From the IMG/VR virus record IMGVR_UViG_3300046810_000256, positions 1 through 64,000 of that record: a DNA stretch of 64,000 nucleotides; one strand, 5' to 3'. The notes below the pieces were generated by a model, which saw only the letters and a list, made by a program, of their open reading frames with translations, was not told the origin of the DNA and did no database searches. Below, piece after piece: positions 2,673 to 45,572 of this stretch (positions are counted from its first letter, which is position 1; the number at the start of each line of letters is the position of its first letter). The stretch comes from a virus. A program made the position numbers and the translations under genes.

Positions 2673-3077
2673 TCAAACCTCACCAGCAACGAAATGCGGC
2701 GCGCCGTCGACGTCCTTGACCACGCCAGCCGCATACAGCACCAGCTCAATGCGGCGGGCGGCGGATCCTTGCACGAACGCAGCAATGGCGCTCATGTCGG
2801 CCCGGCCACCTTCAGGCAACACGGTTTTGTAGAAAGACTCCCAGGCCTTGGCCAGCGCCCCACGCACGTCCGAGTAGGTCGAAACAGCAAAGCGGCGCTT
2901 GAACACGCCCCCGCCGATATCGACCGTGTGCAGGTGCGTGTAGCCCTTCTGGCTTCCATCGTCATCCAGGCAACGGATGCAGCCGCACGGCCCGGCGACA
3001 AAAGCGCCCATCAGGCAGTCGGCGAAGGCCAGCACAGGCTTGAGGAATAGGCGCTTGTCATCTTCGAACAAATCCAC
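2673..3077 (-). CDS. Hypothetical protein
   Basis: 134-aa ORF directly after the par genes with GGAG RBS. Confidence 0.6.
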   Translation of the reverse strand: MDLFEDDKRLFLKPVLAFADCLMGAFVAGPCGCIRCLDDDGSQKGYTHLHTVDIGGGVFKRRFAVSTYSDVRGALAKAWESFYKTVLPEGGRADMSAIAAFVQGSAARRIELVLYAAGVVKDVDGAPHFVAGEV

Positions 3078-3080
3078 GGC

Positions 3081-3449
3081 TTACTCCTTGTTTTCGGCGG
3101 CCTTGGCTTCTTTCTCTTCGAGCGCATCCAGCGCATTGCCCAGCAGCTCGTGCAACACCTTAATGCCGCGCTCTTCTGCCATGCGGTAGTACCGATCATG
3201 CATCGGAATAGGGATCTTGATGTTCAGCTGCTTTTTCGGCTCCGCGGCGTTGAAACGCTTTGTTTTCGCGGTCTGCTCGGGCTTGGCTTCGCGGGAATGG
3301 AAGCCGTTATCTTTAGCTACCTGCGAGATATCTTGTTCTATCTCTTTGGTAACTACTGGCGCAGCAGTAGCGGATTTGGGCTTGAAGTCGTCGAGCATTG
3401 CAAAGGCATTCGCGGCCTCGGTTGGTTCTTTTGGTTGATCTCCGCTCAC
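3081..3449 (-). CDS. Ribbon-helix-helix centromere-binding partition protein (type Ib, ParG-like)
   Basis: C-terminal KQLNIKIPIPMHDRYYRMAEERGIKVLHELL RHH pattern after a flexible N-terminus; overlaps the parA stop. Confidence 0.75.
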   Translation of the reverse strand: MSGDQPKEPTEAANAFAMLDDFKPKSATAAPVVTKEIEQDISQVAKDNGFHSREAKPEQTAKTKRFNAAEPKKQLNIKIPIPMHDRYYRMAEERGIKVLHELLGNALDALEEKEAKAAENKE

Positions 3450-4150
3450 GATGCGGGCTCCTGAATAGATTTGAGTTTCATCAGCAGTTCAGCGGTTACG
3501 GCTTCAGCGTTGACGATTGCGGTTGCAACGCCTGGAACAAGCGCCGGATCCAGAGTTTCCAGCGGGCGCTGGTACTTGAACATCGACTTGAAAGCATCGC
3601 GATCTTTCATTTCTGTTTCGAACATCGGAATTTCAAGCTTTTGCAGATCCTCGCGCAGCCCTGCGGTATTGCGAGTTTCGTAGGCAGCGGAGGTACAGGT
3701 GAACAGGATGGAGTAAGGCAGGCTGTAGTTCGGTACGTGACGGCGAACTGCTTTTTCCTGATCCGTAACCAGCTTGATTGCCTTGCCTGCCTCTTTGGCA
3801 TCCAGATGCGAGCCACGCATAGGGATCAACACGTAATCCGCCTGTTGAAGCGCGTTGACCACGATCTTCGCCGCGGTGCCCTCCAGATCCACCAGAACGA
3901 ACGGCACTTTCTCCGCCGCCTCACGGATCTTGTCACCGATGTTGTCCTCGTTGACGTCCGGAATGATCAGCAGGTTGTCCGGGCAGTGGCCACCAGATGC
4001 AAAATCCTTGAGCGGGTTGTTTGGGTCAGCATCCAGCAAAGCCACTTGGGCGCCCTTCTTGGCCAGTTGCAGCGCCAAATTGAGCATGGTCGTTGTTTTC
4101 CCTGCGCCGCCCTTGGGGCTCACTGCAACTGTTGTAGGCATATCCGACAC
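3446..4150 (-). CDS. parA: ParA/ParF Walker-type partition ATPase
   Basis: Deviant Walker A SPKGGAGKTT, LLDADPN, VLVDLEG; short type Ib length. Confidence 0.92.
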   Translation of the reverse strand: MSDMPTTVAVSPKGGAGKTTTMLNLALQLAKKGAQVALLDADPNNPLKDFASGGHCPDNLLIIPDVNEDNIGDKIREAAEKVPFVLVDLEGTAAKIVVNALQQADYVLIPMRGSHLDAKEAGKAIKLVTDQEKAVRRHVPNYSLPYSILFTCTSAAYETRNTAGLREDLQKLEIPMFETEMKDRDAFKSMFKYQRPLETLDPALVPGVATAIVNAEAVTAELLMKLKSIQEPAS

Positions 4151-4220
4151 CTTAAATAGAAGAAGATAGAAAGAGTTATCTCTCGATACTGCGAGGTACG
4201 ACTGTATATCCCTACCAATC

Positions 4221-4377
4221 TGGTATCAATGGATATCTTTAGATATCCATAAATATTATTGGTTATATCTTGGTATCACTTGATTTCTTTTTTCTGCCTA
4301 CCTTGTGATATCAGTGGATATCTCTCGGTATCCGCTGCCCTGCAATGGCTGGATATCGCTTAGTACTAATTCGTATC
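4221..4377. repeat. Centromere-like (parS) array of G(A/G)TATC units in 10-bp phase upstream of parA
   Basis: tggtatc 4221, ggatatc 4231, agatatc 4241, tggtatc 4271, tgatttc 4281; tgatatc 4306, ggatatc 4316, cggtatc 4326, ggatatc 4351. Confidence 0.7.
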
Positions 4378-4393
4378 TTTTGTTAGCCCATGA

Positions 4394-4418
4394 AAAAGCC
4401 CGCACGCGGCGGGCCTTT
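4394..4418 (-). terminator. Intrinsic terminator
   Basis: aaaaagcccgc-acgcg-gcgggccttt hairpin; a nearly identical copy is at 48961. Confidence 0.7.
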
Positions 4419-4431
4419 GAGGGGAGGTCGG

Positions 4432-4659
4432 TCATTCAGCGTCAGCGAATGCTGCCAAGCACTCAAGCGCGTATTGCGCCGGGTATGACCATTGGTGCGT
4501 GCCTGCTATCCAGTTCTTGAGCGTGGCGTGCGACACGCCGACACGAGCAGCACAAGCGCGCTGACTCATGCCGGTACGCTTGATCACCTGGGAGACGTAA
4601 GCGGCGTCGGTGTTGTGCTGTGAGGCGTCTGGCGGATTGAGCTTGATTGTGCGTGCCAT
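4432..4659 (-). CDS. Small XRE-type HTH regulator
   Basis: GMSQRACAARVGVSHATLKNW HTH; last gene of the small-gene operon. Confidence 0.75.
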   Translation of the reverse strand: MARTIKLNPPDASQHNTDAAYVSQVIKRTGMSQRACAARVGVSHATLKNWIAGTHQWSYPAQYALECLAAFADAE

Positions 4660-4664
4660 GCTTC

Positions 4665-4880
4665 TCAATCGGCCTTCTTGATCTGGTCGGTAATATCCTT
4701 ATGGCATGACGCACAGTAGCGACGTTCGCCGCCGCGCACTCGCTCCATGTTCGATGCATCTACAGCGGTACCATCGACTTCGAACAGCTGAACGTACTTA
4801 CACACGCGCTTCTCATACCACCCGGACAGCTCGCCACATCGTGGACAGGGCTCAACCTGTTTCAACATTCGTAAATCCAT
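4665..4880 (-). CDS. Small zinc-ribbon protein
   Basis: CPRC...CASC; GGAG RBS before ATG 4880. Confidence 0.55.
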   Translation of the reverse strand: MDLRMLKQVEPCPRCGELSGWYEKRVCKYVQLFEVDGTAVDASNMERVRGGERRYCASCHKDITDQIKKAD

Positions 4881-4947
4881 CGCCTGAATGCTCCTTGGGT
4901 AATAACAGCCCAACCCCCAATCAAGGGGGTGGGAATATGAACCTCGT

Positions 4948-5199
4948 TTACGCGCCTACAGCTTCTTCTACAACAGGAGTGCAGTGGTCAAGGCTGACAC
5001 AGCCGCTCTTACCCTCCAGCCAGATGACAGCACTATGCCCACTGAGCACCTGCGCTTCGGACTTGGACTTGCCGCGGAAAGTCTCGCCATCACCGCGGAT
5101 CTCTTCATAGGACACGGTGGTACCGACGCCGTGGGAGGCGTTCCATTCGGCACATTGTTTTTCGAGCTGGGCAAGGGTAGGGCGTTTAGGTGCTGGCAT
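4948..5199 (-). CDS. Hypothetical phage protein
   Basis: 83-aa ORF with AGGAG RBS. Confidence 0.6.
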   Translation of the reverse strand: MPAPKRPTLAQLEKQCAEWNASHGVGTTVSYEEIRGDGETFRGKSKSEAQVLSGHSAVIWLEGKSGCVSLDHCTPVVEEAVGA

Positions 5200-11325: not shown

Positions 11326-11483
11326 GTCTAGCCCTGCACTGTGGATATGGTGACATTATGATAAGGCACTTTGCCCACAAAACGAAATCGCCCAAAAAAT
11401 CAGAGAAAATGGTACGGGGATAGTTTTATATTTATCCAAAACGCACAAAACCCCGTTTTTCGGGGCTTTGTGAGGGTTTCGCG

Positions 11484-32072: not shown

Positions 32073-32984
32073 TTACTGCCCACCGAGGACGGAACCAACA
32101 ACCGACAGGACTTTCTTGACGCCGCTGGTAACGGTGGCCATGGCGCCCTTGTCGTCTTCCTTCTCCGGCTCAGGCTGGTAGCCGGGCAGCTCAGTGCGGG
32201 CCATGAATCGGTTCGCGCTGTCGAGCATTGCGGTGCCCGGATCCATGTTGATACCGCGCTCCATCACCGCCGGTGCGCTGTCGAGCATGGGCGCCTCGAT
32301 CTTCGCCTGGCGCAGACGTTCCAGCAGCCTGGCGTTGTACTCAGTCAGTTCATCGTTGATTTTGTATTGCTTCAAGATGTCGTTACTGAGCCCTTCGGCG
32401 AAGGCGTCAGACTCTTTGATCATGTTGTCGACCGAATCCAGCAGCGCGGCGCTTTCCGTTGGGAAGGTGTCGACCGGCGCGAATACGCCCGGCGTCACAC
32501 TGTCCAGCATCACCGCATAGCCGCGGTTGTTGTCGTAGTTCGGCGCACGCACCAGATCCATGCCGAAATACCCCTTGGGCACGCGCAGGCCGTTCTCTTC
32601 AGGCGCGTAGATTGCCGAACTGAAGCCATAGGCCTTGCTGTCCCACAGACGCGCGCCAACACGCCCCGGCGCGGTATCAAGAAACTCTTGCTCGTGCTCC
32701 ACGTCACCATTTGGGTAGCACTTGAGGTAGAGCGTGCGGCACGTCGGCTCAAGCACTACAGGCACGTTGTCCACCATGACGGTTTCCGGAACGTCCAGCC
32801 CGTATTTCTCCCGGTACTGGTGGCCGATAAAGCCATAGATGTCACCCTTGCGGATCGACTCCTGAAGCGCCGCACCGTTGAACAAGCGCATGGCGGCATC
32901 AATGTCGATTGCGCGCTTCTGCCCGGTGAAGCTGCGCTTGATGTCGTTCAGGTTGTAGCGGATCACGCCCGTGCGCTTACTCAT
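32073..32984 (-). CDS. pro: Prohead processing protease (P1 Pro-like)
   Basis: YGFIGHQYR, VEHEQEFLDT, GFSSA, GMDLVRAPNY; directly after the portal. Confidence 0.75.
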   Translation of the reverse strand: MSKRTGVIRYNLNDIKRSFTGQKRAIDIDAAMRLFNGAALQESIRKGDIYGFIGHQYREKYGLDVPETVMVDNVPVVLEPTCRTLYLKCYPNGDVEHEQEFLDTAPGRVGARLWDSKAYGFSSAIYAPEENGLRVPKGYFGMDLVRAPNYDNNRGYAVMLDSVTPGVFAPVDTFPTESAALLDSVDNMIKESDAFAEGLSNDILKQYKINDELTEYNARLLERLRQAKIEAPMLDSAPAVMERGINMDPGTAMLDSANRFMARTELPGYQPEPEKEDDKGAMATVTSGVKKVLSVVGSVLGGQ

Positions 32985-34602
32985 CTAGATTGTCCTCGTT
33001 GTCTTTGTTGCCGCCAGCGTTCGCGCCTGGTGGTAGATCCATGTCGAAGTCGCCGCCACCGCCTGGCTGTACCGGTGGTTTCGCGTTGGCCAGCCCCTTG
33101 GCGAACATTTCCGCGCCCTCTGTGTCCATTTCCGCGACCTTGGCCAGCATGTACACCACGACGTCTTCCGGCAGACCCAGCTCACGCAGCTGCGCAAGGA
33201 TCTGCACGAGAATCGCGGCCTTGTTCATCGCTTTTTCGGAGCTCGACTGTTTCTCGGCCTCAAGCGCCGCGATACCGCCGTAGAAATTGATCGTGTAAGG
33301 GCGTTCGGTGTCCGGCCAGCACTTGCCGTACTTGGCCATCATGTGGCGGTCGATGGTGTCGTTGCAGGTCTTGGTGTAGCTGGTGCGCATCATCCGAGCG
33401 CGTTCGGCGCCCATGGCGCTGGTGCGGTTCGATCCGCCGTCGCCCAGGCCGCCCGACAACTGATCAGCGAAACCCATTTGGGAAATATCGGTACCGAGCG
33501 TGCCCGCCAGCTTCTTGGCGTGAAACATCACGTCTTCAATGCCGAGGTTCTGGCCGTTGGCGCCGGAAGCAATGCTGCTCACTTGGGTCAGCTGCTTGTT
33601 GTTGGAAACCGGAATAACGTTGAAATTACGGGACGTCGAATAAACGCCTTCCTGAATCTGCTTGTGCGCCCGCTCTTTCATGGCGGTGAGCATTTTGGTC
33701 AGGTTCTCGATGGTCTTGGCGCGCTGTTCCTTGGTGGTGTCGGCCAGGTCAATCGTCAGCAGAACCTCTTCGATAGAGCTAGCGATACGCTGCCCCACCA
33801 GACCGCGCAGCGCCGAATACAGGTTGTCAAAGTCCTGCTCAGCGGCCTCCAGCAACGAACCGCCCACCAACCCCGGGAGCGGCATGACATCGCGCAGGTT
33901 GACGGCTTCAAGATTGATCTTCTGCGCGTTCTCAATGATTTTCGTCTGAGGCAGCACCAGCATGCGCGGCATTTTCCAGCGCACGATATCCATGTGGCTG
34001 AGCTTGCTCTGCATCTTCTCGCCCAAGCTCACTACATAACCAACTGTGCGGCCCAGTTCTTCATAGGGCTGCACCAGCGGTGTCCAGAGCGTTTCATGGT
34101 CGAACGCCACAAGCCCTTCGCCCTTGATGGTGTACGCGCGAGCGTAGGAGTCGCCAAACCCGGCAGCGTTGAAACCCATGGAGTGGCAGCTGTCGTTCAG
34201 CATCTTGATGACTGGCGCCAGCTCGTCGACCATCTTCTGATCAGCACGACTGATATGCGGCTTCGCCTCAAGGAAAACGGTTTCCCCGGTGGTTTCGTGC
34301 CCGCCAAGTGCCATCTGGACGTTGTTGCGCAGGGCCGTGGAGATAAGCCCTTCCTGCATCATGAAATGGTATTTCATGTAAATCTGCGAGCGGGTGCGCA
34401 CCGGCTTGCCGGAGTTGCCCAGCAACATCTCGACGCCGACATAATCCGCATCGAAGGTGTCCACTTGATCCAGTCGCCGCATCGCGTGCTGATTGGCTTC
34501 GCTGGCGCTCATGTCGGAGAGTTGGCCGCCCATGATCAGGTCACGGGCGCCACCAATGAATCGCGACACCAGCCCTTTTTGGGGTTCAGTTGAATTAGCC
34601 AT
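32977..34602 (-). CDS. prt: Portal protein (P1 Prt-like)
   Basis: 541 aa; GFGDSYAR, GFADQLSGGLGDGG..RTS motifs. Confidence 0.8.
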   Translation of the reverse strand: MANSTEPQKGLVSRFIGGARDLIMGGQLSDMSASEANQHAMRRLDQVDTFDADYVGVEMLLGNSGKPVRTRSQIYMKYHFMMQEGLISTALRNNVQMALGGHETTGETVFLEAKPHISRADQKMVDELAPVIKMLNDSCHSMGFNAAGFGDSYARAYTIKGEGLVAFDHETLWTPLVQPYEELGRTVGYVVSLGEKMQSKLSHMDIVRWKMPRMLVLPQTKIIENAQKINLEAVNLRDVMPLPGLVGGSLLEAAEQDFDNLYSALRGLVGQRIASSIEEVLLTIDLADTTKEQRAKTIENLTKMLTAMKERAHKQIQEGVYSTSRNFNVIPVSNNKQLTQVSSIASGANGQNLGIEDVMFHAKKLAGTLGTDISQMGFADQLSGGLGDGGSNRTSAMGAERARMMRTSYTKTCNDTIDRHMMAKYGKCWPDTERPYTINFYGGIAALEAEKQSSSEKAMNKAAILVQILAQLRELGLPEDVVVYMLAKVAEMDTEGAEMFAKGLANAKPPVQPGGGGDFDMDLPPGANAGGNKDNEDNLDE

Positions 34603-36836: not shown

Positions 36837-37132
36837 CAGCGCACCGACCTTGTAGCGGTAACGATGCCGCATTTCTGCTTGAGGTAGGCCAAGTGCTCTC
36901 TGGTAGGCAGCACCACGTCTTTTTCGATCAGCTCAGAGTCAACCGTCGACAGCCCGGCTGCCGCCATGATCGCCAGCGTCTCAGTGGCGTCACCGTACAC
37001 GCGCAGCGCCATCATGGGCAGGTGATAGCGCTCGCTCGGGAAACTGCGCACCACTTGGCGACGGGATGAATACGACGGCTCAGTCAGTGCGAACTTGCGC
37101 ACCTCCAGATAAAACCGGGCTTCGGGGATCAT
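36836..37132 (-). CDS. Baseplate LysM-like protein (PmgA/T4 gp53-like)
   Basis: PSERYHLPMMALRVYG...AAAGL...LPT pattern. Confidence 0.65.
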   Translation of the reverse strand: MIPEARFYLEVRKFALTEPSYSSRRQVVRSFPSERYHLPMMALRVYGDATETLAIMAAAGLSTVDSELIEKDVVLPTREHLAYLKQKCGIVTATRSVR

Positions 37133-37569
37133 GGGATTTCAACTGCCTGTGATGCTAACGCTTTGGTTCGATCCTTAGCGCCCACCGCGACCTCAACCCG
37201 CTCAGCGCTATCCCAGCGCAACCGCGCCGTCACAGTCATCAATGCCGAAGTGTCCCCCCAGTCATAGAACGCGCCAGGCTCACTAATAACAACCCCGCTG
37301 AGCGTGTACAAGACAATGCCTTTTGCGCCCGAAACGATCTTCGCCGTGAGCTTCTTCCCGTGGACGGCCTCAAGGAATTTCCACGCGTGCCCGGCTTCCG
37401 TTTCATACATGGCGAACGGCCCGCTATTGCTACCCGGCATCGGAATAGGCGCCTTGAAGCAAAGCAAGCCGATATCTTCGAAGCCATCAATAACAATCAT
37501 CATGTCCACCGCTACATGCCGAGGCCTGCAATTGCATTTCAATCCAGTCATTACACGGGGCTCCATCAA
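37129..37569 (-). CDS. Tail-tube-like/BplB-like protein
   Basis: KAPIP...MYETEAGHA motif; first gene behind a late promoter. Confidence 0.45.
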   Translation of the reverse strand: MMEPRVMTGLKCNCRPRHVAVDMMIVIDGFEDIGLLCFKAPIPMPGSNSGPFAMYETEAGHAWKFLEAVHGKKLTAKIVSGAKGIVLYTLSGVVISEPGAFYDWGDTSALMTVTARLRWDSAERVEVAVGAKDRTKALASQAVEIP

Positions 37570-37636: not shown

Positions 37637-37660
37637 AAACCCCGCTCGGGGGCGGGGTTA
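37637..37660. terminator. Intrinsic terminator
   Basis: aaccccgc-tcgggg-gcggggtt. Confidence 0.65.
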
Positions 37661-37676: not shown

Positions 37677-38492
37677 CTAGAAATTTCCGTACGTGCCGGG
37701 CCGGAAATAGGTGTCGCGCGGAAAACCTAAACGTTCATCTTCTTCATCAGCGCTCAGCAGACATATGGCTTCAAGCTCTCGCTCCACTCGTGGGTTCTTT
37801 GCTGCGAGCTCTACAAGGCCTTCGCTATCAACACTCATGTTCAGTGTTGAAACCTGAGACAGCCCTTCCATAGACGGACATTTGATGTCTTTGGTGATAA
37901 TCCCCTGCTTGTATCGGTCGATGTATGGTGCGTAGCAGTCCCGATACGTCGCACGCAACAACTCACAGGCGGGACGTGTCTGAAGACAGATTTTACTAAA
38001 AAGCATGCTTGAGCCCATTTTCCGGAACTCACGCGGCAAAGCGCAGTTAAACGAATGATCTAGGATCATGATCCGAGGGGAGCCCAGCTCGCTGGCGTAC
38101 GCTTCAAGGCGCTGCGCGTACTCTCTTTCCTTTCCATGATCGGTGCTGCCGTGAAGTGTGCGCTCACTCAACAGAATTGCCCGACGCCGCCCGCCAGCTT
38201 GCCGAGAGGCGGCGACGATGAAGTGATAGGTGTGGAATCGGTAGTTGTCGCAAACAACCGCCAGAAAGTGTTCAAACGCCTCGCCGTGCTTAATCGGGCC
38301 ATCACCAGCCAGCGCATTCTCAACCAACTGAGGGATTTCACTTGCCTTGAGTGAGGCACCGGGATGGCGGATTTTAGTGTTGCCAGAATTCCAAATCTTC
38401 ACCGTGGATACGGAATAAGCTGCTTTGCTCAGCTGCCCCATCCGCGCACGGTATTCAAGATTCTCATCGTGACGACTGCGCTTGATAGTCAT
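37677..38492 (-). CDS. Hypothetical accessory protein (lower GC)
   Basis: 271-aa ORF coupled to the LytTR gene by an ATGA overlap. Confidence 0.6.
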   Translation of the reverse strand: MTIKRSRHDENLEYRARMGQLSKAAYSVSTVKIWNSGNTKIRHPGASLKASEIPQLVENALAGDGPIKHGEAFEHFLAVVCDNYRFHTYHFIVAASRQAGGRRRAILLSERTLHGSTDHGKEREYAQRLEAYASELGSPRIMILDHSFNCALPREFRKMGSSMLFSKICLQTRPACELLRATYRDCYAPYIDRYKQGIITKDIKCPSMEGLSQVSTLNMSVDSEGLVELAAKNPRVERELEAICLLSADEEDERLGFPRDTYFRPGTYGNF

Positions 38493-38887
38493 GCTGCCAC
38501 CGCAGACGGCAGTTCTTGCTGGCCGAGGTAGGCGGCATAGCGCGGGTAGATGTCGATTTTCCCTCGGCGGGAGACGGAGAACTCGCGCCCGCCTACCAGA
38601 CAGAAGTGGTCACGGGTGAAGGACGATTGATTCTTGCGCCGCTCATTACGGGATGTCAGCCCCTCAACCGCTTCAACCCGCACCAGGCTGGCGCGATGGA
38701 TACGCACAAGGCCCGAATCACCGGCCTCGATATCTTTGAGCGTGTGCTTTCCGGTCAGCAGCCACTCAACGCCGTCGGCATCCAGCGCCGACACAAACTT
38801 CTGATCAGCCCAAAACGCAACGAACACAGATGAGTCGACTTTCTCAGGGCGGCGGTGCCAGTTCTTTCTGTAGCGGCGCAGTTGCAT
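38489..38887 (-). CDS. Stand-alone LytTR DNA-binding protein
   Basis: TLKDIE...LVRIHRASLV...SVSRR. Confidence 0.75.
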   Translation of the reverse strand: MQLRRYRKNWHRRPEKVDSSVFVAFWADQKFVSALDADGVEWLLTGKHTLKDIEAGDSGLVRIHRASLVRVEAVEGLTSRNERRKNQSSFTRDHFCLVGGREFSVSRRGKIDIYPRYAAYLGQQELPSAVAA

Positions 38888-39011
38888 AGCATTACCTCAA
38901 TCTATCCCCGGACAATAAAAGGCGCTTTTGTGCGCATAAATGGCCGAAAACACGGGGTTTGTTCTCTGCTTTCCGCAGAATATACAACAACAAACAATAA
39001 AATGTATGTTT

Positions 39012-40562
39012 TTAAGCGACGTCGGCGAGAAGGTCAGCTGCTTTGCTTAGAGTCGCCTGGGCCCGCGAAGACTGAGCCGCCTCGGTTTCTTCACTGCACG
39101 CGATGTAGTTGACGTCCTCAAGGAAGACCATGCAGATGGTGTCAAACAAGTCCGGGGATGACAGGCCATCGGCGGCCATGCTCTCTTTGCTGGCGATCTT
39201 GTAGCGCCCCAGCTCATCGAACGAATACGGCAGTCGTGAGCCTTGGTCGATCAGGTCGCGCTTGTGCTTCTTGCCCAGCTTGACCACGCCGTCTTTGATT
39301 GCCTCGGTGGCATGCACGGTGCATTGCGCGCGCTGGTTGATGAATCGCTTGCGGTTCTCGTTGGAATGCGGCTTGGCGCCCCACAGAACGCCCTGAATGA
39401 TCATGCTGCCCTCTTGCAGCTCTTCCAGTCGGCGCTGGAACTGCTTACCCATGGCCGAGACGTCGATAACGATGGTGACGTTTGGCAGGCGCATGGCGTA
39501 ATCGCGCAGCTTGACCGCCAGCGGCGTCCAGTCCTCAGTTGCGCTGTAGATCGGCACGTCGACCACCTCCACCCGGCGGCGGCGCTCGTTCGCCATCCGG
39601 TCGCCCTTGCCGGTGACGCGGAAGTGGGTGGCCACGGTCTTGTCTCGCCCAACGCCAGCCGCGACGTCGACAACGATAATGTGGCCCCACTCTTCGCCTG
39701 GCAGGATCGGGCTCGCCTGCTCTATCGCCCGTTCGATCAGCACCGAACTCAGCAGGTATTTGCTGAGGTTGGTCGGGAACATGCCCCGCACCTTGATCTG
39801 ATATTCCGGCTCCATCGTGCCGCCGTACTGGAGCCGCTTTTCCTTGATGAACTTGAGGCTGACAATCGGGCTTTCTTCGGAGTTGAATACCAGCGGTACC
39901 CAGCCACCGCCGCGGTAGATGGACTGGCCGTGGTGCGTCTCCCAAAAGAAACCGGTAGAGCGCGTCGGCTGGCTGGCCATGATGAAGCGGTTGCGCTCGT
40001 CGGTCAGTGCGCCACCGATTACGCCAAAGTTCTCGTCTGGAATGCCGGACGCTTCGTCCGCCAGCCATAGCAGGTACTCGCCGTGGGTACCGGCCAAGTT
40101 CTCAGGCGAGCCGCGTGGAGCGGTACGGGTGGTGACGTACCATGTGGCGCTGTTACCGACCACATAGACTTTCTCAGCTTGGATAACCACGTAGTCAGCG
40201 ATCCACGCATGCGGCCCTTTGCGGATCTCCGCCAGCATGGTGGTGATTTCCTTCCACACACCCTCTCGCACCGTCTTGAGCTTCGGCGCGGTTACATAGG
40301 TGTTGGAATTGAGATAGCACAGCAGGTGCCAGAGGCAGATGACCCCGAAGCTGCGGGTTTTACCAGTACCGTGGCCAGACGATACCGACACCCGACAGCC
40401 GTAGACTGAGGATTCATCAAAGAGCTCTTGTTGTTGCGGTGTGACATCCATCAAACACGCTTCAACCGCAAAGGCGTACAGGTTGAAGGCGTAGCGTTCG
40501 ATGAAAGCGGGCCACCTCGGGTCTGTTTCTAAGCGCAGACGCTGGGCTTTCGGCTTGGCCAT
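39012..40562 (-). CDS. pacB: Terminase large subunit
   Basis: Walker A SGHGTGKT, Walker B WLADEASG, SQPTR motif III, RNase H domain IVVDVAAG...SPDLFD. Confidence 0.92.
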   Translation of the reverse strand: MAKPKAQRLRLETDPRWPAFIERYAFNLYAFAVEACLMDVTPQQQELFDESSVYGCRVSVSSGHGTGKTRSFGVICLWHLLCYLNSNTYVTAPKLKTVREGVWKEITTMLAEIRKGPHAWIADYVVIQAEKVYVVGNSATWYVTTRTAPRGSPENLAGTHGEYLLWLADEASGIPDENFGVIGGALTDERNRFIMASQPTRSTGFFWETHHGQSIYRGGGWVPLVFNSEESPIVSLKFIKEKRLQYGGTMEPEYQIKVRGMFPTNLSKYLLSSVLIERAIEQASPILPGEEWGHIIVVDVAAGVGRDKTVATHFRVTGKGDRMANERRRRVEVVDVPIYSATEDWTPLAVKLRDYAMRLPNVTIVIDVSAMGKQFQRRLEELQEGSMIIQGVLWGAKPHSNENRKRFINQRAQCTVHATEAIKDGVVKLGKKHKRDLIDQGSRLPYSFDELGRYKIASKESMAADGLSSPDLFDTICMVFLEDVNYIACSEETEAAQSSRAQATLSKAADLLADVA

Positions 40563-40604
40563 ATGATCCTTAAACACAAAGGGGCCAGTTCCCCGGCCCC
40601 TGTC

Positions 40605-40645
40605 ACTCTACGTCTACGCCGTTCGCACTTTCAGAGACGGTTTGC
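40605..40645 (-). promoter_or_regulatory. Late promoter motif dedicated to pacB (GCAAACC-N28-TAGAGT)
   Basis: Conserved spacing; overlaps the 3' end of the upstream gene. Confidence 0.65.
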
Positions 40646-41333
40646 GGTCTTGCGTGGCGTTCAGAACGAACGCTTTCCAGCTGCTGCCAGACGCCCAGCA
40701 GCTCAACGTGGTTTGTGTCGCCCGGAAAAATCCTTTGCGTCGACCTTGGCCAGAGTGCAACACCATGCCGCCACCGCTGCGGGCAAGCCCTTCACGCGCC
40801 ACCTGAAAGCTCACCTCCGGCATGGTGCTGGCGTCCTCCATCAACCACATGGGATCGCGCCCACCGAAACCGGCCATGTGTTCCGGGGAATGCGCGCTGG
40901 CGGCCAGAAAGAGCACGCCACAGCCTGAATACTCTGCCTGCTGGCGAAGTCTGATGCTTCTGATGGTGATTCGCAGGTAACCGACCAACCATGCGTGCTC
41001 GCCCTCAATACGCTTGACCAACTTGCTGTATTGCTCACAGCAGCGAAGCATGTCGCCGAAGGGCACGGCCACCATAGTCATCGACTCGGGGCGGCACAGC
41101 AGGCGCCAGAACGCGATAGGCGCCAGCGGGCTGATCATTCCCCGCTCCATCGGATTCATGTCTGACGCCATCGACACCTGGCAGTCAGGCAGCTGCACAC
41201 TTTCGAAGGCTCGCGCCAGTTGATCGTCCACTACCATCCCGCACACCTCACGCGCGAACGCGGCCAGGTCGTTGGCGTAGCGCCGGACGAAAGCGGGCCA
41301 GCGCTCGTCATCTTGAATCAGGCTCGTGCTCAT
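40614..41333 (-). CDS. Inactive paralogue of the PacB ATPase domain
   Basis: Colinear similarity to about PacB residues 10-240; Walker A lost, Walker B altered; ATGA-coupled start at 41333. Confidence 0.8.
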   Translation of the reverse strand: MSTSLIQDDERWPAFVRRYANDLAAFAREVCGMVVDDQLARAFESVQLPDCQVSMASDMNPMERGMISPLAPIAFWRLLCRPESMTMVAVPFGDMLRCCEQYSKLVKRIEGEHAWLVGYLRITIRSIRLRQQAEYSGCGVLFLAASAHSPEHMAGFGGRDPMWLMEDASTMPEVSFQVAREGLARSGGGMVLHSGQGRRKGFFRATQTTLSCWASGSSWKAFVLNATQDRKPSLKVRTA

Positions 41334-41929
41334 GCTGCGGCCTCGCTGGCCAGCTGCGCCAACTCGCGCTCGTGTTCGGCGATCAGCAGCGCGCCAGCCT
41401 TCTCGATGGCGCGAAGTCGTGACTCTTGTTTCATGGGGGCGTGAGGCCATGGCCAGACGGTTGGCGCGAAGTCCGGCACCAGCAGCTGAAGCAAGTAACC
41501 CGCCGCCGCGCGCAGCAGCTCGTCATCGCGATAGCGCAGGTCGCGTTCCGGGTGATACCCCTTCACCAGCAGCTGGCGCTGGCGCTCGCTCAGAATGGCG
41601 TTCTCGCTCGGGCCGGTGATTGGCATGGATGACCACAGCGCCAGCGGCTGCTCCCATCCATTGGCGGCCTTCTGCGCCCATTCAGTTGTGGTCATGCGCG
41701 CATATGGCCGCGTCACGGAAATACCCTGATCACGCCCACGGCGCACCAGAAGCCACGCTTTTGGCTGCTGAGTGGCGTGGCGAGACTGCGCCAGCGATTC
41801 CCACACCAGAAACGTCTTCTGTGTGTGGGCGTTCACGTACTCGCCCGTCTCGGTGTTGAATGCCAGGTCACTGATACCCGCATGCCGACACGAGCGCTCA
41901 AAATGTTCGCGACTGAAAAAGAGGGTCAT
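41330..41929 (-). CDS. Conserved phage hypothetical protein
   Basis: ERQRQ...GY...D...EL.RAAAGY...WPW...KAGALLIAE motif common in phage early genes; likely start ATG 41929. Confidence 0.6.
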   Translation of the reverse strand: MTLFFSREHFERSCRHAGISDLAFNTETGEYVNAHTQKTFLVWESLAQSRHATQQPKAWLLVRRGRDQGISVTRPYARMTTTEWAQKAANGWEQPLALWSSMPITGPSENAILSERQRQLLVKGYHPERDLRYRDDELLRAAAGYLLQLLVPDFAPTVWPWPHAPMKQESRLRAIEKAGALLIAEHERELAQLASEAAA

Positions 41930-42186
41930 GGTGTTGTTCCCGCCGCTGCTGGCTTGAATTGAAAGAGTTCGACAGGCGCCGCCGGTAAGTCGAATACGGC
42001 GGCGAGCCATGGGTGGATAGCATCCGGATCGCTGGCGCCGTCGAAGCGCCAGCGTTCTGCCGGGAAGTGTTCGCGCAGTGCGTGCTCGATCTCGCCCGCG
42101 CCATTGCGCAACCACAACTCATTCCCGCACTCACGCTCAACTGACAGCGTTTCGCCGGTCACAAGGTTCGTCACGGTCTGGCTCAC
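41926..42186 (-). CDS. Hypothetical protein
   Basis: Coupled overlaps on both sides. Confidence 0.5.
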   Translation of the reverse strand: MSQTVTNLVTGETLSVERECGNELWLRNGAGEIEHALREHFPAERWRFDGASDPDAIHPWLAAVFDLPAAPVELFQFKPAAAGTTP

Positions 42187-42674
42187 TTCATTTCCCCGGT
42201 CTTGCGGTTGATCTCGGTTGGCTTGGTGAAAGCGCGGGAGAATCGGAATTCAGCAATGACCTGATTGAAACTGTGTTCTACCCGGTCGAAATACTGATTC
42301 CCTTCGGCCATCAACGCCTGCGCCAGCCACGCGGCGGGGACGCTGCGCCCCTCTTCCACGTAGGTGGCCAGGCTCCGCACCAGCCGCTGCTCGGCGTAGG
42401 TACCGCTGAAGCCCGGCAGCAAGCGGCCCTTGCCGCGAACCGTCGTCGCCAGATCCACCGGGCGAGCGTCCGCGGTCGGCAGCACCAGATAGAACCCGCC
42501 GAGGCGCTTGGGCTCCAGGCGTGCAACACGGTCTTTTCTGCCAAAGATGCGCAACCCCGCCAGCGCCAGCGAATTGAAAATCAGGTTCGCGGTGTCCAGT
42601 CGGTGCTGCTGGCGCTCAGTCAGCGCGATTGCCGCGGGCGGTGTCAGTTGCACGGGTGCTGCTTGCATATCCAT
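42183..42674 (-). CDS. Hypothetical protein
   Basis: 163-aa ORF in a coupled chain. Confidence 0.55.
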   Translation of the reverse strand: MDMQAAPVQLTPPAAIALTERQQHRLDTANLIFNSLALAGLRIFGRKDRVARLEPKRLGGFYLVLPTADARPVDLATTVRGKGRLLPGFSGTYAEQRLVRSLATYVEEGRSVPAAWLAQALMAEGNQYFDRVEHSFNQVIAEFRFSRAFTKPTEINRKTGEMK

Positions 42675-42677
42675 CCC

Positions 42678-42848
42678 CTAAATCTTGAGCCGCATCTGTG
42701 CGCGGTCACATTCGTTTTCACCGTGCGGGAGCTTGTGGGCCAAGGCTTCACAGTTCCTGCGCCCACAATCACGGCAGTAGGTGTAGGCGGGGGCGCTTCG
42801 TGGCCTCCGCCAGATGACGCGATTGCTTTCGCAAAAACGGCAGTTCAT
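42678..42848 (-). CDS. 56-aa zinc-ribbon protein (below the ORF-track cutoff)
   Basis: MNCRFCESNRVIW...YCRDCGRRNC; AGGA RBS. Confidence 0.5.
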   Translation of the reverse strand: MNCRFCESNRVIWRRPRSAPAYTYCRDCGRRNCEALAHKLPHGENECDRAQMRLKI

Positions 42849-42874
42849 CAGTCCTGTCCCGGTCTATCCCCGGA

Positions 42875-44161
42875 CTAGGCGGGACGCGCTTCGATCATCG
42901 CCTGCGCGTACACCCATCGGCGATTAGCAAAGGCGGCCATGCTTTCGTCTGATTTTTGCTTCAGCGGGCAGTTGATGGCGAAGTCATCGCGCAGCTCTGT
43001 CAGGTACAGACCCAGCTTCTTCTCTGGCGCTTTCGGCGCGGTGGCCGGGTCGGCGTAGGCTGGCACGGGTTTTTCGACCGCCAGCGGCAGTTCAACGCTG
43101 TGATACGCCATGCAGAAGGCATCAAACAGGTCGGCGGCTGGGAGTTGGGCGGCTGCGATGTGCGAAGGCTTGGCCACGAGATAGCGATTCTCGGCGCTCA
43201 ACTCATAAGGGATCTTTGAGCCCAACAGCACCAGCGGATCACTCAAGCCGCAATCGGATGGCAGCAGCAGCTTCAGGTTTTTATTCCGAATCGCCTCGGC
43301 AGTCAGAACACTGCATTCAGTGCGGCGGTTCACGAAACGCTTGCCGTTGCCACCTTTTGGCAGCGCTTGACCCATCGTCATTCCGTAACACCTGACATGG
43401 GGACTCACAACGTCTTGAAGGTACTTGAGCAACTGCACGCCATCGCCGAAGGCATCCACGAGAATCGTCGTAGGGGCTGATAGCGCATTGACGTGCCGCA
43501 GCAACGCATCGCCGTAGGACTTCAGATCACCGCCGTCTGTGAGGATTGGATAGCTGGCCACCTCGACCAGTCGGCGGGCGTCAGGGCTGTCATACACGCG
43601 CATGTGGGCGGCAACAGTCATTCCTCCACGACCAGCACCGCCGAGACGGACACCGATTACATGCTTCGCCTCGACACCCTCGGGAATCGGGCTTTCGATG
43701 GTCAGCGCCAGGGCGATATCGGCGTCACTGAGCAGGTAGCCGCGACGATCCTGATTCTGCGCCCGAAGAATCGCGGGGACTTCGTTGTTCGAAGCCATCA
43801 ATGCAGGCTGTACCTTGCCTTTGACCACCACTTGCAGCTGGCCAGATGAATTAGGACGAACGATGTCTTTGATGGCCGTCGCCACCGGGGAGGCCAGGTA
43901 ACTGGTCAGCAGCGGGCGCAGGCGGTAGTGGGTTTGTGCGAATCGCTGTTTACGGCCAAAGCCTTCCTGAACCGACACGGGCTTACAGTTCGGAACATCT
44001 ACCCAGTAATGCACACCACGGGCGGCATTAGCGCGATCCGGCGCCGATACCTTGTAACCTTGGGTGATGAGCCATTGCTTGAAGGACGTCACGTTGCACG
44101 CCAACAGCAGATCGGTGTCGTGCGATTGTCCTTTCGGTTTTACTGCGGGGTTCGACATCAT
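42875..44161 (-). CDS. Protein containing a degenerate paralogue of the PacB nuclease (RNase H) domain
   Basis: About 43103-43739 aligns with the PacB C-terminal half (YLLS...KRFVNRR...ADLFDAFCM); first catalytic Asp replaced by Arg. Confidence 0.8.
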   Translation of the reverse strand: MMSNPAVKPKGQSHDTDLLLACNVTSFKQWLITQGYKVSAPDRANAARGVHYWVDVPNCKPVSVQEGFGRKQRFAQTHYRLRPLLTSYLASPVATAIKDIVRPNSSGQLQVVVKGKVQPALMASNNEVPAILRAQNQDRRGYLLSDADIALALTIESPIPEGVEAKHVIGVRLGGAGRGGMTVAAHMRVYDSPDARRLVEVASYPILTDGGDLKSYGDALLRHVNALSAPTTILVDAFGDGVQLLKYLQDVVSPHVRCYGMTMGQALPKGGNGKRFVNRRTECSVLTAEAIRNKNLKLLLPSDCGLSDPLVLLGSKIPYELSAENRYLVAKPSHIAAAQLPAADLFDAFCMAYHSVELPLAVEKPVPAYADPATAPKAPEKKLGLYLTELRDDFAINCPLKQKSDESMAAFANRRWVYAQAMIEARPA

Positions 44162-44448
44162 TCAGCTCCTAGCGGGTTGGCCGTGAACGGCCTCAGATTT
44201 TTTGTGTTCCCGCGGCGGATGGCCGAGGGACGTTTTTCAACAACAGGCTTGATCCACAGCTGCCCTGTTTTGAACAGGAACAGCTCCCACAGCCCAAGCT
44301 TGATTTTGGTGTCACCCTTCTCGTACAGACGCCACGATTCGCGGCTCACGTAGATCAGCTCCCCCGCAGCGGTTTCGCTCAGGCTCGCGTTCTTGCGGGC
44401 TTGCCGGATGTTTTTTGGGGTCGGTTCGCGGTCGGCGGGGAGCGTCAT
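44158..44448 (-). CDS. XRE-type HTH protein
   Basis: IRQARKNASLSETAAGELIYVSRESWRLYEKG. Confidence 0.75.
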   Translation of the reverse strand: MTLPADREPTPKNIRQARKNASLSETAAGELIYVSRESWRLYEKGDTKIKLGLWELFLFKTGQLWIKPVVEKRPSAIRRGNTKNLRPFTANPLGAE

Positions 44449-45572
44449 GCGTCACCGCCGTTATCATCCAGCCCGGCGATATCGGCCATACGCTGGGCCA
44501 TCGCGTCTCTCTGCGCTTGTGTGGCCTGCATGCCTTTCGCGTAGGCGTCATTCAGCGCAACCGTATCTACAACGGCCACAGGCGCCTGCGCCGGTTCGAT
44601 ATTCATGTTGAAGATGCGGCCCAGCATTTCGAGGTAAGGGCGGGCGTCGTGGATCTTCATTTCCAGCCCATCTTTGGTTTCCTTCACGCCGCCGTACAGA
44701 GCCAGCGCGCCAGGCGAAAGGTGCCGGGTGTCTTTGAGCACGAGCTGGCCAATGCCATTGCCATTGCACTCAGGGCATTCCGGGTTAGGGTCGAGGTTGG
44801 CGTCGAAGCCCAGGCCGCCCAGCTCGTCGAGCACCGGTAACGGCTTGCGCTTCGCGGCCTTGGCTTCGGCCAGCGCCTCAGCATGGCGCGCCTTGCGCTC
44901 TTCCAGCTGACGCGGGGTCATCTGGTACCGGAAATCTTTGCCGTGGCAGCACCGGCAGCAGCGGTAAACGTATTCGACCAACTCCCGAGGGTCTGCCATC
45001 GCCGCGCCGTAGATGCGCTGAATGACTCGCCCGGTGATTTCCTCAGTCTTGGCAAACAGCTCCGCACGCTTGGCCAGCGTGTATGGGTGTTCCTTAACCT
45101 TCTTTAACAGGCGACTGGCTGCTGCTGCCGCCACTGCATCGGATTTGCACTCGTAGCCTGCATCGAGATAGGACTGAGTGCCGTTTTGTGTGACCAGCCA
45201 AAGGTCGACAAACTTCGCCTGACGGGCGTCGAGATCGTGCAGACTCCCGGCCTGCAAGGCTTCCAGCTCTTTCGGTTTCAGCTTGACCGCTTTCTTCACT
45301 CGGGTGCTGCCGCCTGTTCCGCGAGGCGTTTTTGCTTGCGCCGGAGCACCCGGTACCGCCGCAGCAGGTTTTGCAGCACGGGGCTTTCGGGCTAAAGTAG
45401 CAGGCTTTTTAGGTGTCTTTGGAGAGGTGGCTTTTTGAACGCGGCCAGCACTCACCTTAACTTCTGGCTTTTTAGGGGGTGCAAACACAGGTTTGCCAGC
45501 CTTGTCCGGGGATTGATTATCCTCGGCTGGCTTAGCGCGCTCTTCGATACCCTCGATCTTTTTCCGTGCCAC
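44445..45572 (-). CDS. pacA: Terminase small subunit
   Basis: RQAKFVDLW...NGTQSYLDAGY...AASRLL; CRCCHG...PNPECPECNG insert; GVKETKDGLEMK. Confidence 0.85.
   Translation of the reverse strand: MARKKIEGIEERAKPAEDNQSPDKAGKPVFAPPKKPEVKVSAGRVQKATSPKTPKKPATLARKPRAAKPAAAVPGAPAQAKTPRGTGGSTRVKKAVKLKPKELEALQAGSLHDLDARQAKFVDLWLVTQNGTQSYLDAGYECKSDAVAAAAASRLLKKVKEHPYTLAKRAELFAKTEEITGRVIQRIYGAAMADPRELVEYVYRCCRCCHGKDFRYQMTPRQLEERKARHAEALAEAKAAKRKPLPVLDELGGLGFDANLDPNPECPECNGNGIGQLVLKDTRHLSPGALALYGGVKETKDGLEMKIHDARPYLEMLGRIFNMNIEPAQAPVAVVDTVALNDAYAKGMQATQAQRDAMAQRMADIAGLDDNGGDA

Follow-up and report, generated by a model that had tools for sequence, protein, structure and literature searches.

Predicted noncatalytic, single-domain paralogues of the large terminase in the packaging operon of a P1-type Pseudomonas phage(-plasmid)

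A 64,000-nucleotide stretch of viral DNA (positions 1 to 64,000 of IMG/VR virus record IMGVR_UViG_3300046810_000256; hereafter the window) contains, at 39012-45572, the genes for a small and a large terminase subunit, TerS and TerL, separated by an insert in which two genes encode proteins related to the two domains of TerL. The window is part of a record of 83,006 bp that carries direct terminal repeats and is judged complete. The closest DNA relatives are complete, circular, non-mobilizable Pseudomonas plasmids of 80-95 kb, and we therefore assign the element to the P1-type phage-plasmid lineage; it is an 83-kb Pseudomonas P1-type phage(-plasmid), with the plasmid state predicted from the relatives. 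TerL (39012-40577, minus strand; phrog_2, 3e-32) probably begins at the ATG of 40562. It shares 35% identity with P1 PacB across 92% of its length (E 1e-76) and 36.5% with the TerL of Xanthomonas phage Rb1. TerS (44445-45572, minus strand) is a PacA-like small terminase of 375 residues (Pfam Terminase_2, 1e-13; phrog_51, 3e-18). An earlier account made from the letters of this DNA, the sequence-only reading, had named the two genes pacA and pacB, and given the similarity to PacB and the Terminase_2 match these labels are acceptable as family names. Indeed, the packaging module is of the P1 type, with a PacA-like TerS and a PacB-like TerL in one late operon of an 80-95 kb plasmid-type element. 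In an alignment of PacB-type TerL proteins that took in the resident family, P1, Rb1, pBVIE05, pPRS08 and pEuc3, the invariant residues are the Walker A motif SGxGTGK[ST], the Walker B residues DEA and the nuclease residues D304, D372 and D476/D479. Walker A, Walker B and the nuclease acidic residues are all intact in the resident TerL.

The gene coordinates place terS and terL ~3.9 kb apart, as the sequence-only reading had it. In P1, for which that reading had correctly stated that pacA and pacB are adjacent, and likewise in Xanthomonas phage Rb1, pBVIE05 and pEuc3, all outside the resident family, the two genes are neighbors with nothing between them, and the insert genes are also absent from a Pseudomonas relative whose TerL is 56% identical. 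The terminase genes and the copies all lie on the minus strand, and the order of transcription is TerS, a helix-turn-helix (HTH) protein, protein X, a zinc-ribbon protein, o163, o86, o199, the ATPase-domain paralogue and TerL. The interval thus holds seven co-oriented genes rather than the two first supposed. Overlaps of 4 nt link TerS, HTH and X, and again o163, o86, o199 and the ATPase-domain paralogue, so that each of the two TerL copies overlaps its own upstream neighbor; the coupling of the two copies to each other that had been proposed does not exist. Their order is reversed relative to TerL, with the nuclease copy before the ATPase copy, as had been described.

The gene at 40614-41333 on the minus strand encodes a 239-residue paralogue of the TerL ATPase domain, which we call ATP'. 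In BLASTP, ATP' is 30% identical to TerL residues 16-242 (E 9e-28), and a profile-profile comparison with hhalign gave 99.8% (E 3e-29), which bears out the paralogue that had been placed at this position. Homologues begin at the ATP' methionine of 41333, where the start codon overlaps the o199 stop (ATGA), and a longer open reading frame (ORF) reaching to 41450 is unused by relatives. The Walker A motif of TerL, SGHGTGKT, is replaced by unrelated sequence of the SDMNPMERG type in every ATP' examined, and what stands in its place is conserved within an allele group (SDLNPMERG...). The TerL Walker B motif LADEAS has become LMEDAS in the resident ATP'; across ATP' copies the DE pair reads ED, EG or HD, and the second position is D, E, N or G in relatives. 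From these substitutions the ATPase copy is clearly predicted to be catalytically dead. What ATP' has kept is the N-terminal helix motif of TerL, DxRWPAFxxRYxxxLxxFAxEVxG, whose residues are among the few invariant columns across highly divergent ATP' alleles and whose D19 and R21 are invariant across PacB-type TerLs. The AlphaFold2 model of ATP' is poor (predicted local distance difference test score, pLDDT, 55). In a tree of ATPase domains all but one of the ATP' alleles fall into a clade outside all PacB-type TerLs; because its branches are long, the tree leaves the date and the number of duplications unsettled. A tblastn search with ATP' also found two places in the 114-kb P. psychrotolerans plasmid CP018759.1, which may hold an additional TerL-like copy elsewhere.

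The second copy, Nuc' (43103-43738, minus strand), forms the middle of protein X (42875-44161, minus strand), a protein of 428 residues that consists of an N-domain (residues 12-100), a nuclease-like part (residues 142-353) and a C-tail (residues 384-428). BLASTP pairs X residues 142-353 with TerL residues 274-485 (34% identity, E 5e-25), and Nuc' and TerL match at 99.9% in hhalign (E 4e-36). Profile comparison of the two ORFs with TerL, at 99.8-99.9%, thus confirms the homology that the sequence-only reading had asserted, the nuclease-domain paralogue within 42875-44161 included, and the coordinates were right. The loss of catalytic residues from both copies was also read correctly: ATP' lacks Walker A and B, and in Nuc' the first nuclease aspartate, which lies in VVDV in TerL, is an invariant arginine (R172) in all 19 X homologues. 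The later two acidic positions are retained in Nuc' (D236 and D344/D348). Judging from known TerL nucleases, Nuc', with one of its three metal ligands lost, is very probably dead. Several noncatalytic surface motifs of TerL are kept in Nuc', namely RFxNxRxxC, GSxxPY and DLF[DE]. The AlphaFold2 model of X is also poor (pLDDT 51), with the nuclease-like part alone usable for a fold search; with this low-confidence model the best structural match of the segment was the E217 TerL nuclease (Z 10.4, root-mean-square deviation 6.3, 175 aligned residues), followed by RB49 gp17 (Z 9.6) and T4 gp17 (Z 9.3). Within X the mean pairwise identity is 72-75% for the N-domain and tail versus 57% for Nuc', and some relatives carry the N-domain and/or the tail with no detectable nuclease-like domain, short X proteins of this kind being a minority in the protein database (2 clusters versus 19). 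On this comparison Nuc' has either been added to a protein whose ends are conserved or is a part that this protein can do without.

A search of the whole record with TerL returned exactly two additional places, ATP' and Nuc'. A third paralogue, o271 (37677-38492, minus strand; 271 residues), lies two genes downstream of TerL, outside 39012-45572, and appears to be a more degenerate dead nuclease copy. It is colinear with TerL residues 280-464 (24% identity over 189 residues, E 1e-4 in BLASTP), and the o271 family profile matches the TerL profile at 96% in hhalign (E 1e-9, 192 columns); the first catalytic aspartate of TerL aligns to a valine. Profile-profile comparison found no similarity to TerL in TerS, HTH, o163, o86, o199 or o132.

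The homology of ATP' and Nuc' to TerL is far beyond chance, and by gene prediction the packaging operon encodes three intact single-domain TerL paralogues, one ATPase-like and two nuclease-like (Nuc' and o271). Set against a PacB-type TerL, ATP' is homologous to residues 16-242, and Nuc' and o271 to approximately residues 270-487. Unlike such a TerL, each copy carries one TerL domain only, with the two-domain architecture found in none of them, and each has lost positions that do not vary among the active PacB-type enzymes: ATP' both Walker motifs, A and B, and Nuc' and o271 the first nuclease aspartate.

How these genes are distributed was assessed in nine related loci (L001/L007, L002, L003 and L008 to L013), in which all ORFs are intact wherever they are present. 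A core set, comprising HTH, the X N-domain and/or C-tail, the zinc ribbon and o199, occurs in all nine. ATP' is absent from L003, a P. atacamensis plasmid (NZ_CP070504.1) in which the P-loop (Walker A) of TerL, encoded at 2907-5183, is interrupted by an intein that carries the annotation Hint-domain homing endonuclease. No Nuc' is detectable in L002, L003 and L010, in which X measures 272, 197 and 196 residues, respectively, and retains the N-domain and tail in L002 and L010 and the tail in L003; L010 is also without o163 and o86. ATP' therefore occurs without Nuc' in L002 and L010. Among eight of the loci TerL is 82-99% identical, ATP' 25-96% and Nuc' 33-61%. Between L009 and L011 no gene other than X falls below 93% identity; in X the N-domain is 74%, Nuc' 49% and the tail 76% identical, and for the same pair the ATPase copy stands at 96% against 49-57% for the nuclease copy. 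L008 and L009 share a backbone that is 79-94% identical, with ATP' at 39% and TerS at 69%. The mosaic boundaries are sharp, the whole of gene X having been swapped between L009 and L011, whose remaining genes are 93-99% identical, and ATP' together with the non-adjacent TerS being discordant between L008 and L009. Thus, by their distribution in the relatives, the copies are best described as accessory and not core genes, which relatives can lack and whose divergent alleles appear to be exchanged by recombination. The idea of one TerL split into two matched and cooperating halves, which the sequence-only reading implied, is not supported, since the presence and the alleles of ATP' and Nuc' vary independently and Nuc' lies inside a protein whose N-domain and tail also occur without it.

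A wider profile search, against 1.84 billion representatives at 50% identity, gave 627 matches. Of the best 150 of these, 55 are shorter than 300 residues and 42 of the 55 have no P-loop. The short Walker-less copies form at least 40 clusters at 50% identity, versus about one for the TerL of the family, and those among the best 150 of the 627 that carry a name are all from Pseudomonas, on contigs of 78-88 kb. Walker-A-less matches of 640-870 residues in the same search are probably other intein-bearing TerLs.

Selection was assessed as the ratio of nonsynonymous to synonymous substitution rates (dN/dS) by the pairwise Nei-Gojobori method. The ratio is 0.04-0.16 for TerL, 0.11-0.26 among ATP' proteins of one allele group (0.11 for a pair whose dS, 0.16, is unsaturated, and 0.16-0.26 for the others), 0.17-0.31 for X and 0.09-0.24 for o271 (0.09 at a dS of 0.20). 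Grouped at 90% identity, the proteins form 11 clusters for ATP' and 19 for the nuclease copy, all with intact ORFs. All three copies are kept by purifying selection. The argument of the sequence-only reading that these are selected rather than decaying proteins is therefore well founded: the copies contain no stops or frameshifts, their dN/dS of 0.09-0.31 is not near 1, and the survey of relatives found no frequent disruption.

The remaining insert genes are small. The HTH protein (44158-44448, minus strand; 96 residues) has weak HTH_31 and MqsA-type HTH matches, its start lies in a 4-nt overlap with the TerS stop, and its gene is present in every relative examined. An apparent ~200-bp gap between X and o163 is filled by the zinc-ribbon ORF (42678-42848, minus strand; 56 residues, CxxC...CxxC), recognized by its conservation across loci: the protein is 55-91% identical in all ten related loci, including those without dead terminase domains. 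The gene for o163 (42183-42674, minus strand) occurs only in loci with Nuc' and has no family match. The protein o86 (41926-42186, minus strand) is small, and its gene has 4-nt overlaps on both sides; o199 (41330-41929, minus strand; phrog_9763, 1.5e-15) is, by synteny, found in all relatives. The C-terminal ~80 residues of o199 match eight PHROGs of unknown function (proteins of 186-685 residues) and represent a widespread unannotated phage domain. Downstream of TerL, o132 (38489-38887, minus strand) shows weak matches to transcription regulators only. Pfam, NCBIfam and PADLOC returned nothing for the insert proteins beyond the weak HTH matches, a PDB sequence search with the TerL, X and ATP' profiles returned no match, and the ESM Atlas gave sub-threshold leads only. 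In TerS itself we observed a Lys/Pro/Ala-rich N-terminal tail of ~95 residues and a Cys-rich insert (CCRxC...CPEC) inside the Terminase_2 core, and residues ~270-310 are of two allelic types among relatives.

Two kinds of candidate regulatory signal accompany these genes. The motif GTCCGGGGATAGA, a candidate late-promoter or activator site, is found just upstream of the zinc-ribbon gene (42863-42875, minus strand), and a motif search located a second exact copy upstream of o132 (38901-38913, minus strand). In the form GTCCGGGGATAG(A/T), with at most 2 mismatches allowed, the window holds 7 matches versus 0.84 expected, at 11412, 16748, 20035, 38901, 42863, 45504 and 46722, several of them in sequence that looks intergenic. 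The core GTCCGGGGA before the zinc-ribbon gene is kept in all 7 of the relatives compared. Between the ATP' stop and the TerL start (40580-40610, minus strand) lies the second signal, a TA(G/C)AGT box, after which come a 9-bp GC-rich hairpin and the T-rich run TTTGTGTTT. The segment 40580-40601 is the strongest terminator-like site of the region, and the only other one is the hairpin found by the terminator scan at 37638-37659 (minus strand), which closes the o132-o271 unit. Box and hairpin are conserved in 10 relatives, where the box is nearly invariant and all sequences form the hairpin; in the hairpin alignment 85% of cells are paired and covariation is weak. Its sequence would suit either a terminator that is leaky or a -10 element with a 5' stem-loop. 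The separate late promoter that the sequence-only reading had assigned to TerL was not confirmed, as a sigma-70 scan found no promoter before TerL and GTCCGGGGATAGA is not present there, the box and hairpin occupying that place instead.

Because ATP hydrolysis is impossible for these proteins and DNA cutting almost certainly impossible, we infer that the copies act by binding. Our favored reading, to which we give a probability of roughly 0.4, is that they are inert mimics of TerL surfaces that would dock onto TerL partners and thereby tune the assembly of the terminase or its cutting. It is favored because the N-terminal helix motif is kept in ATP' and noncatalytic motifs are kept in Nuc'. 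According to this scheme the copies, as accessory members of a group of small proteins that is peculiar to this family and whose genes have been inserted between terS and terL (HTH, X, zinc ribbon and o199), would be made together with the terminase subunits, as predicted from their position in the operon; they would dock onto one or more candidate TerL partners, namely TerS, the TerL ring, the portal or pac DNA; and this docking would tune terminase assembly or cutting. Small, nonenzymatic proteins that bind a terminase subunit and change what is packaged do exist in satellites, in the form of Ppi of the Staphylococcus aureus pathogenicity islands (SaPIs) and Rpp of the phage-inducible chromosomal islands (PICIs). 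Unlike the copies described here, Ppi and Rpp are satellite-encoded, target TerS and are not known to derive from TerL.

Several observations weigh against the favored reading. The view of the N-terminal helix as a TerS-docking element comes only by analogy with lambda gpA. A Spearman comparison of the identity matrices of the genes pointed to no particular partner of the copies, showing nothing more than the phylogeny that the genes share. The copies are known here from their genes, and their coexpression is a prediction. ATP' (down to 25-40%) and Nuc' (33-61%) are far more divergent than TerL (82-99%), and proteins that did nothing but bind the conserved TerL would be expected to be better conserved themselves. 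The dN/dS of Nuc' taken alone is 0.11-0.31, values for which dS is mostly saturated. Indeed, the divergence, the allele swaps and the at least 40 Walker-less clusters fit a role in conflict as well as or better than a housekeeping role.

A conflict role could take the form of counter-defense against terminase-sensing immunity (Avs1-3 and Upx), the copies being decoys that would occupy the sensors but leave them silent, or a shield over monomeric TerL until its assembly; this explanation, the best surviving of the alternatives, we consider unlikely without being far-fetched. Optional, highly divergent alleles that are swapped by recombination beside a conserved TerL form a pattern typical of arms-race genes, yet pairwise dN/dS is 0.1-0.3, and evolution over the short term is purifying, not diversifying. 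Coexpression with TerL, as predicted from the operon position, would suit such a role. Avs sensors appear to bind monomeric TerL, which would make monomers their target (PMC13581612), and it has been postulated that some factor may keep the terminase from being recognized during infection (PMC11564622). Phage proteins resembling the TerL ATPase engage Avs2, and the authors of that work speculate that nonterminase activators might be anti-defense proteins (PMC13601566). The same study found that EcAvs2 recognizes the terminase ATPase domain partly via a bridging ATP, which touches the terminase-bound ATP and the active-site magnesium shell (PMC13601566). A Walker-A-less copy is unlikely to bind ATP, could not then present ATP to a sensor that reads it in the active site, and would therefore be a poor competitor for Avs2. 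Moreover, the one characterized stand-alone protein of this kind, T4 vs.8, a terminase ATPase-domain homologue with intact Walker motifs, activates EcAvs2 and is toxic with it, and for Upx homologues the ATPase domain is enough for activation, with catalytic mutants sufficing as well in most cases (PMC13601566). An additional ATPase-fold protein is therefore as likely to be a liability as a decoy. The insert proteins have no match among PADLOC defense families, a weak point since PADLOC models defense and not anti-defense. The decoy idea raised for Avs by the sequence-only reading is thus weakened by the published Avs2 and Upx data but conceivable, as are a shield role, masking monomeric TerL, and a decoy for sensors with other modes of recognition. 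A more specific version, in which the copies would be a hypervariable counter-immunity layer, with loss of the nucleotide site preventing sensor activation and the alleles tracking the diversity of Pseudomonas sensors, we judge slightly less likely again.

A second form of conflict would set the copies against other elements: as dominant-negative mimics of TerL they would poison the terminases of related phage-plasmids or satellites in the same cell, while the element's own terminase would be matched to the allele that it carries. The many allelic types and their exchange among close relatives agree with this, and the discordance of both ATP' and the non-adjacent TerS in L008, relative to the otherwise similar L009 and L011, hints at allele matching, although it amounts to one event. 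Against this reading, members of the family have nearly the same TerL, the very enzyme that would need to be spared or poisoned; neither a satellite nor a second element was seen, and genes of a late operon would act only in the lytic growth of their own element. We regard weapons of this kind as doubtful, more so than counter-defense in either version.

That the copies are functionless, decaying remnants of terminase duplications is very improbable: they are only 24-34% identical to TerL and missing from some relatives, but no stop or frameshift occurs in any locus or cluster, dN/dS is low with unsaturated pairs included, new motifs are conserved where Walker A was, and translational coupling is preserved, so that the pseudogene reading is rejected on the intact ORFs and the dN/dS values. 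A silent cassette reservoir for gene conversion of TerL is also rejected, the same 24-34% protein identity being too diverged for homologous exchange. The probability beyond the favored reading and its three rivals belongs to roles not yet thought of.

Dead TerL paralogues are described in none of the papers of the library that was searched. These pseudoenzyme paralogues of TerL domains are real and, as far as this search shows, unpublished. The nearest published parallel is T4 vs.8. Like ATP', it is encoded by a phage, stands alone as a paralogue of the ATPase domain of TerL, has no known function and is confined to one phage lineage (PMC13601566). Unlike vs.8, which keeps both Walker motifs and activates EcAvs2 on coexpression, ATP' is without Walker A and B; and in contrast to vs.8, which belongs to the gp17 lineage, the copies described here are of the PacB lineage, lie inside the packaging operon and include nuclease-domain copies alongside. 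Ksap1 and Ksap2, which trigger KpAvs2, are likewise lineage-restricted and dispensable, and their fold is reportedly terminase-ATPase-like and fits the sensor pocket (PMC11564622, PMC13601566). They differ from the copies in having no detectable TerL sequence homology, in being much smaller and in acting as triggers. TerL ranks among the best-conserved proteins of tailed phages, and several bacterial immune sensors target it. Three noncatalytic copies of its domains, in dozens of divergent alleles, point either to an undescribed regulation of the packaging motor or to an undescribed interaction, be it with terminase-sensing immunity or with competing elements. The system lends itself to experiments, as complete plasmid relatives reside in cultured strains, among them the 81-kb plasmid of P. 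fluorescens DR133 (CP048608) and pKF715C of P. putida KF715.

Around the terminase region the window encodes a portal (32977-34602) together with baseplate, tail and tail-fiber proteins of the myovirus type, and upstream of it a Holliday-junction resolvase and an HTH regulator. In a genus sample this type of TerL is present in 3 of 401 Pseudomonas species genomes, a number too small for statistics on co-occurrence, and the sole return of a metagenome scan was a 1.1-kb fragment. Directly downstream of o271, a protein of 146 residues (37129-37569, minus strand) has a weak match to tail-tube proteins (phrog_1120, E 2e-5).

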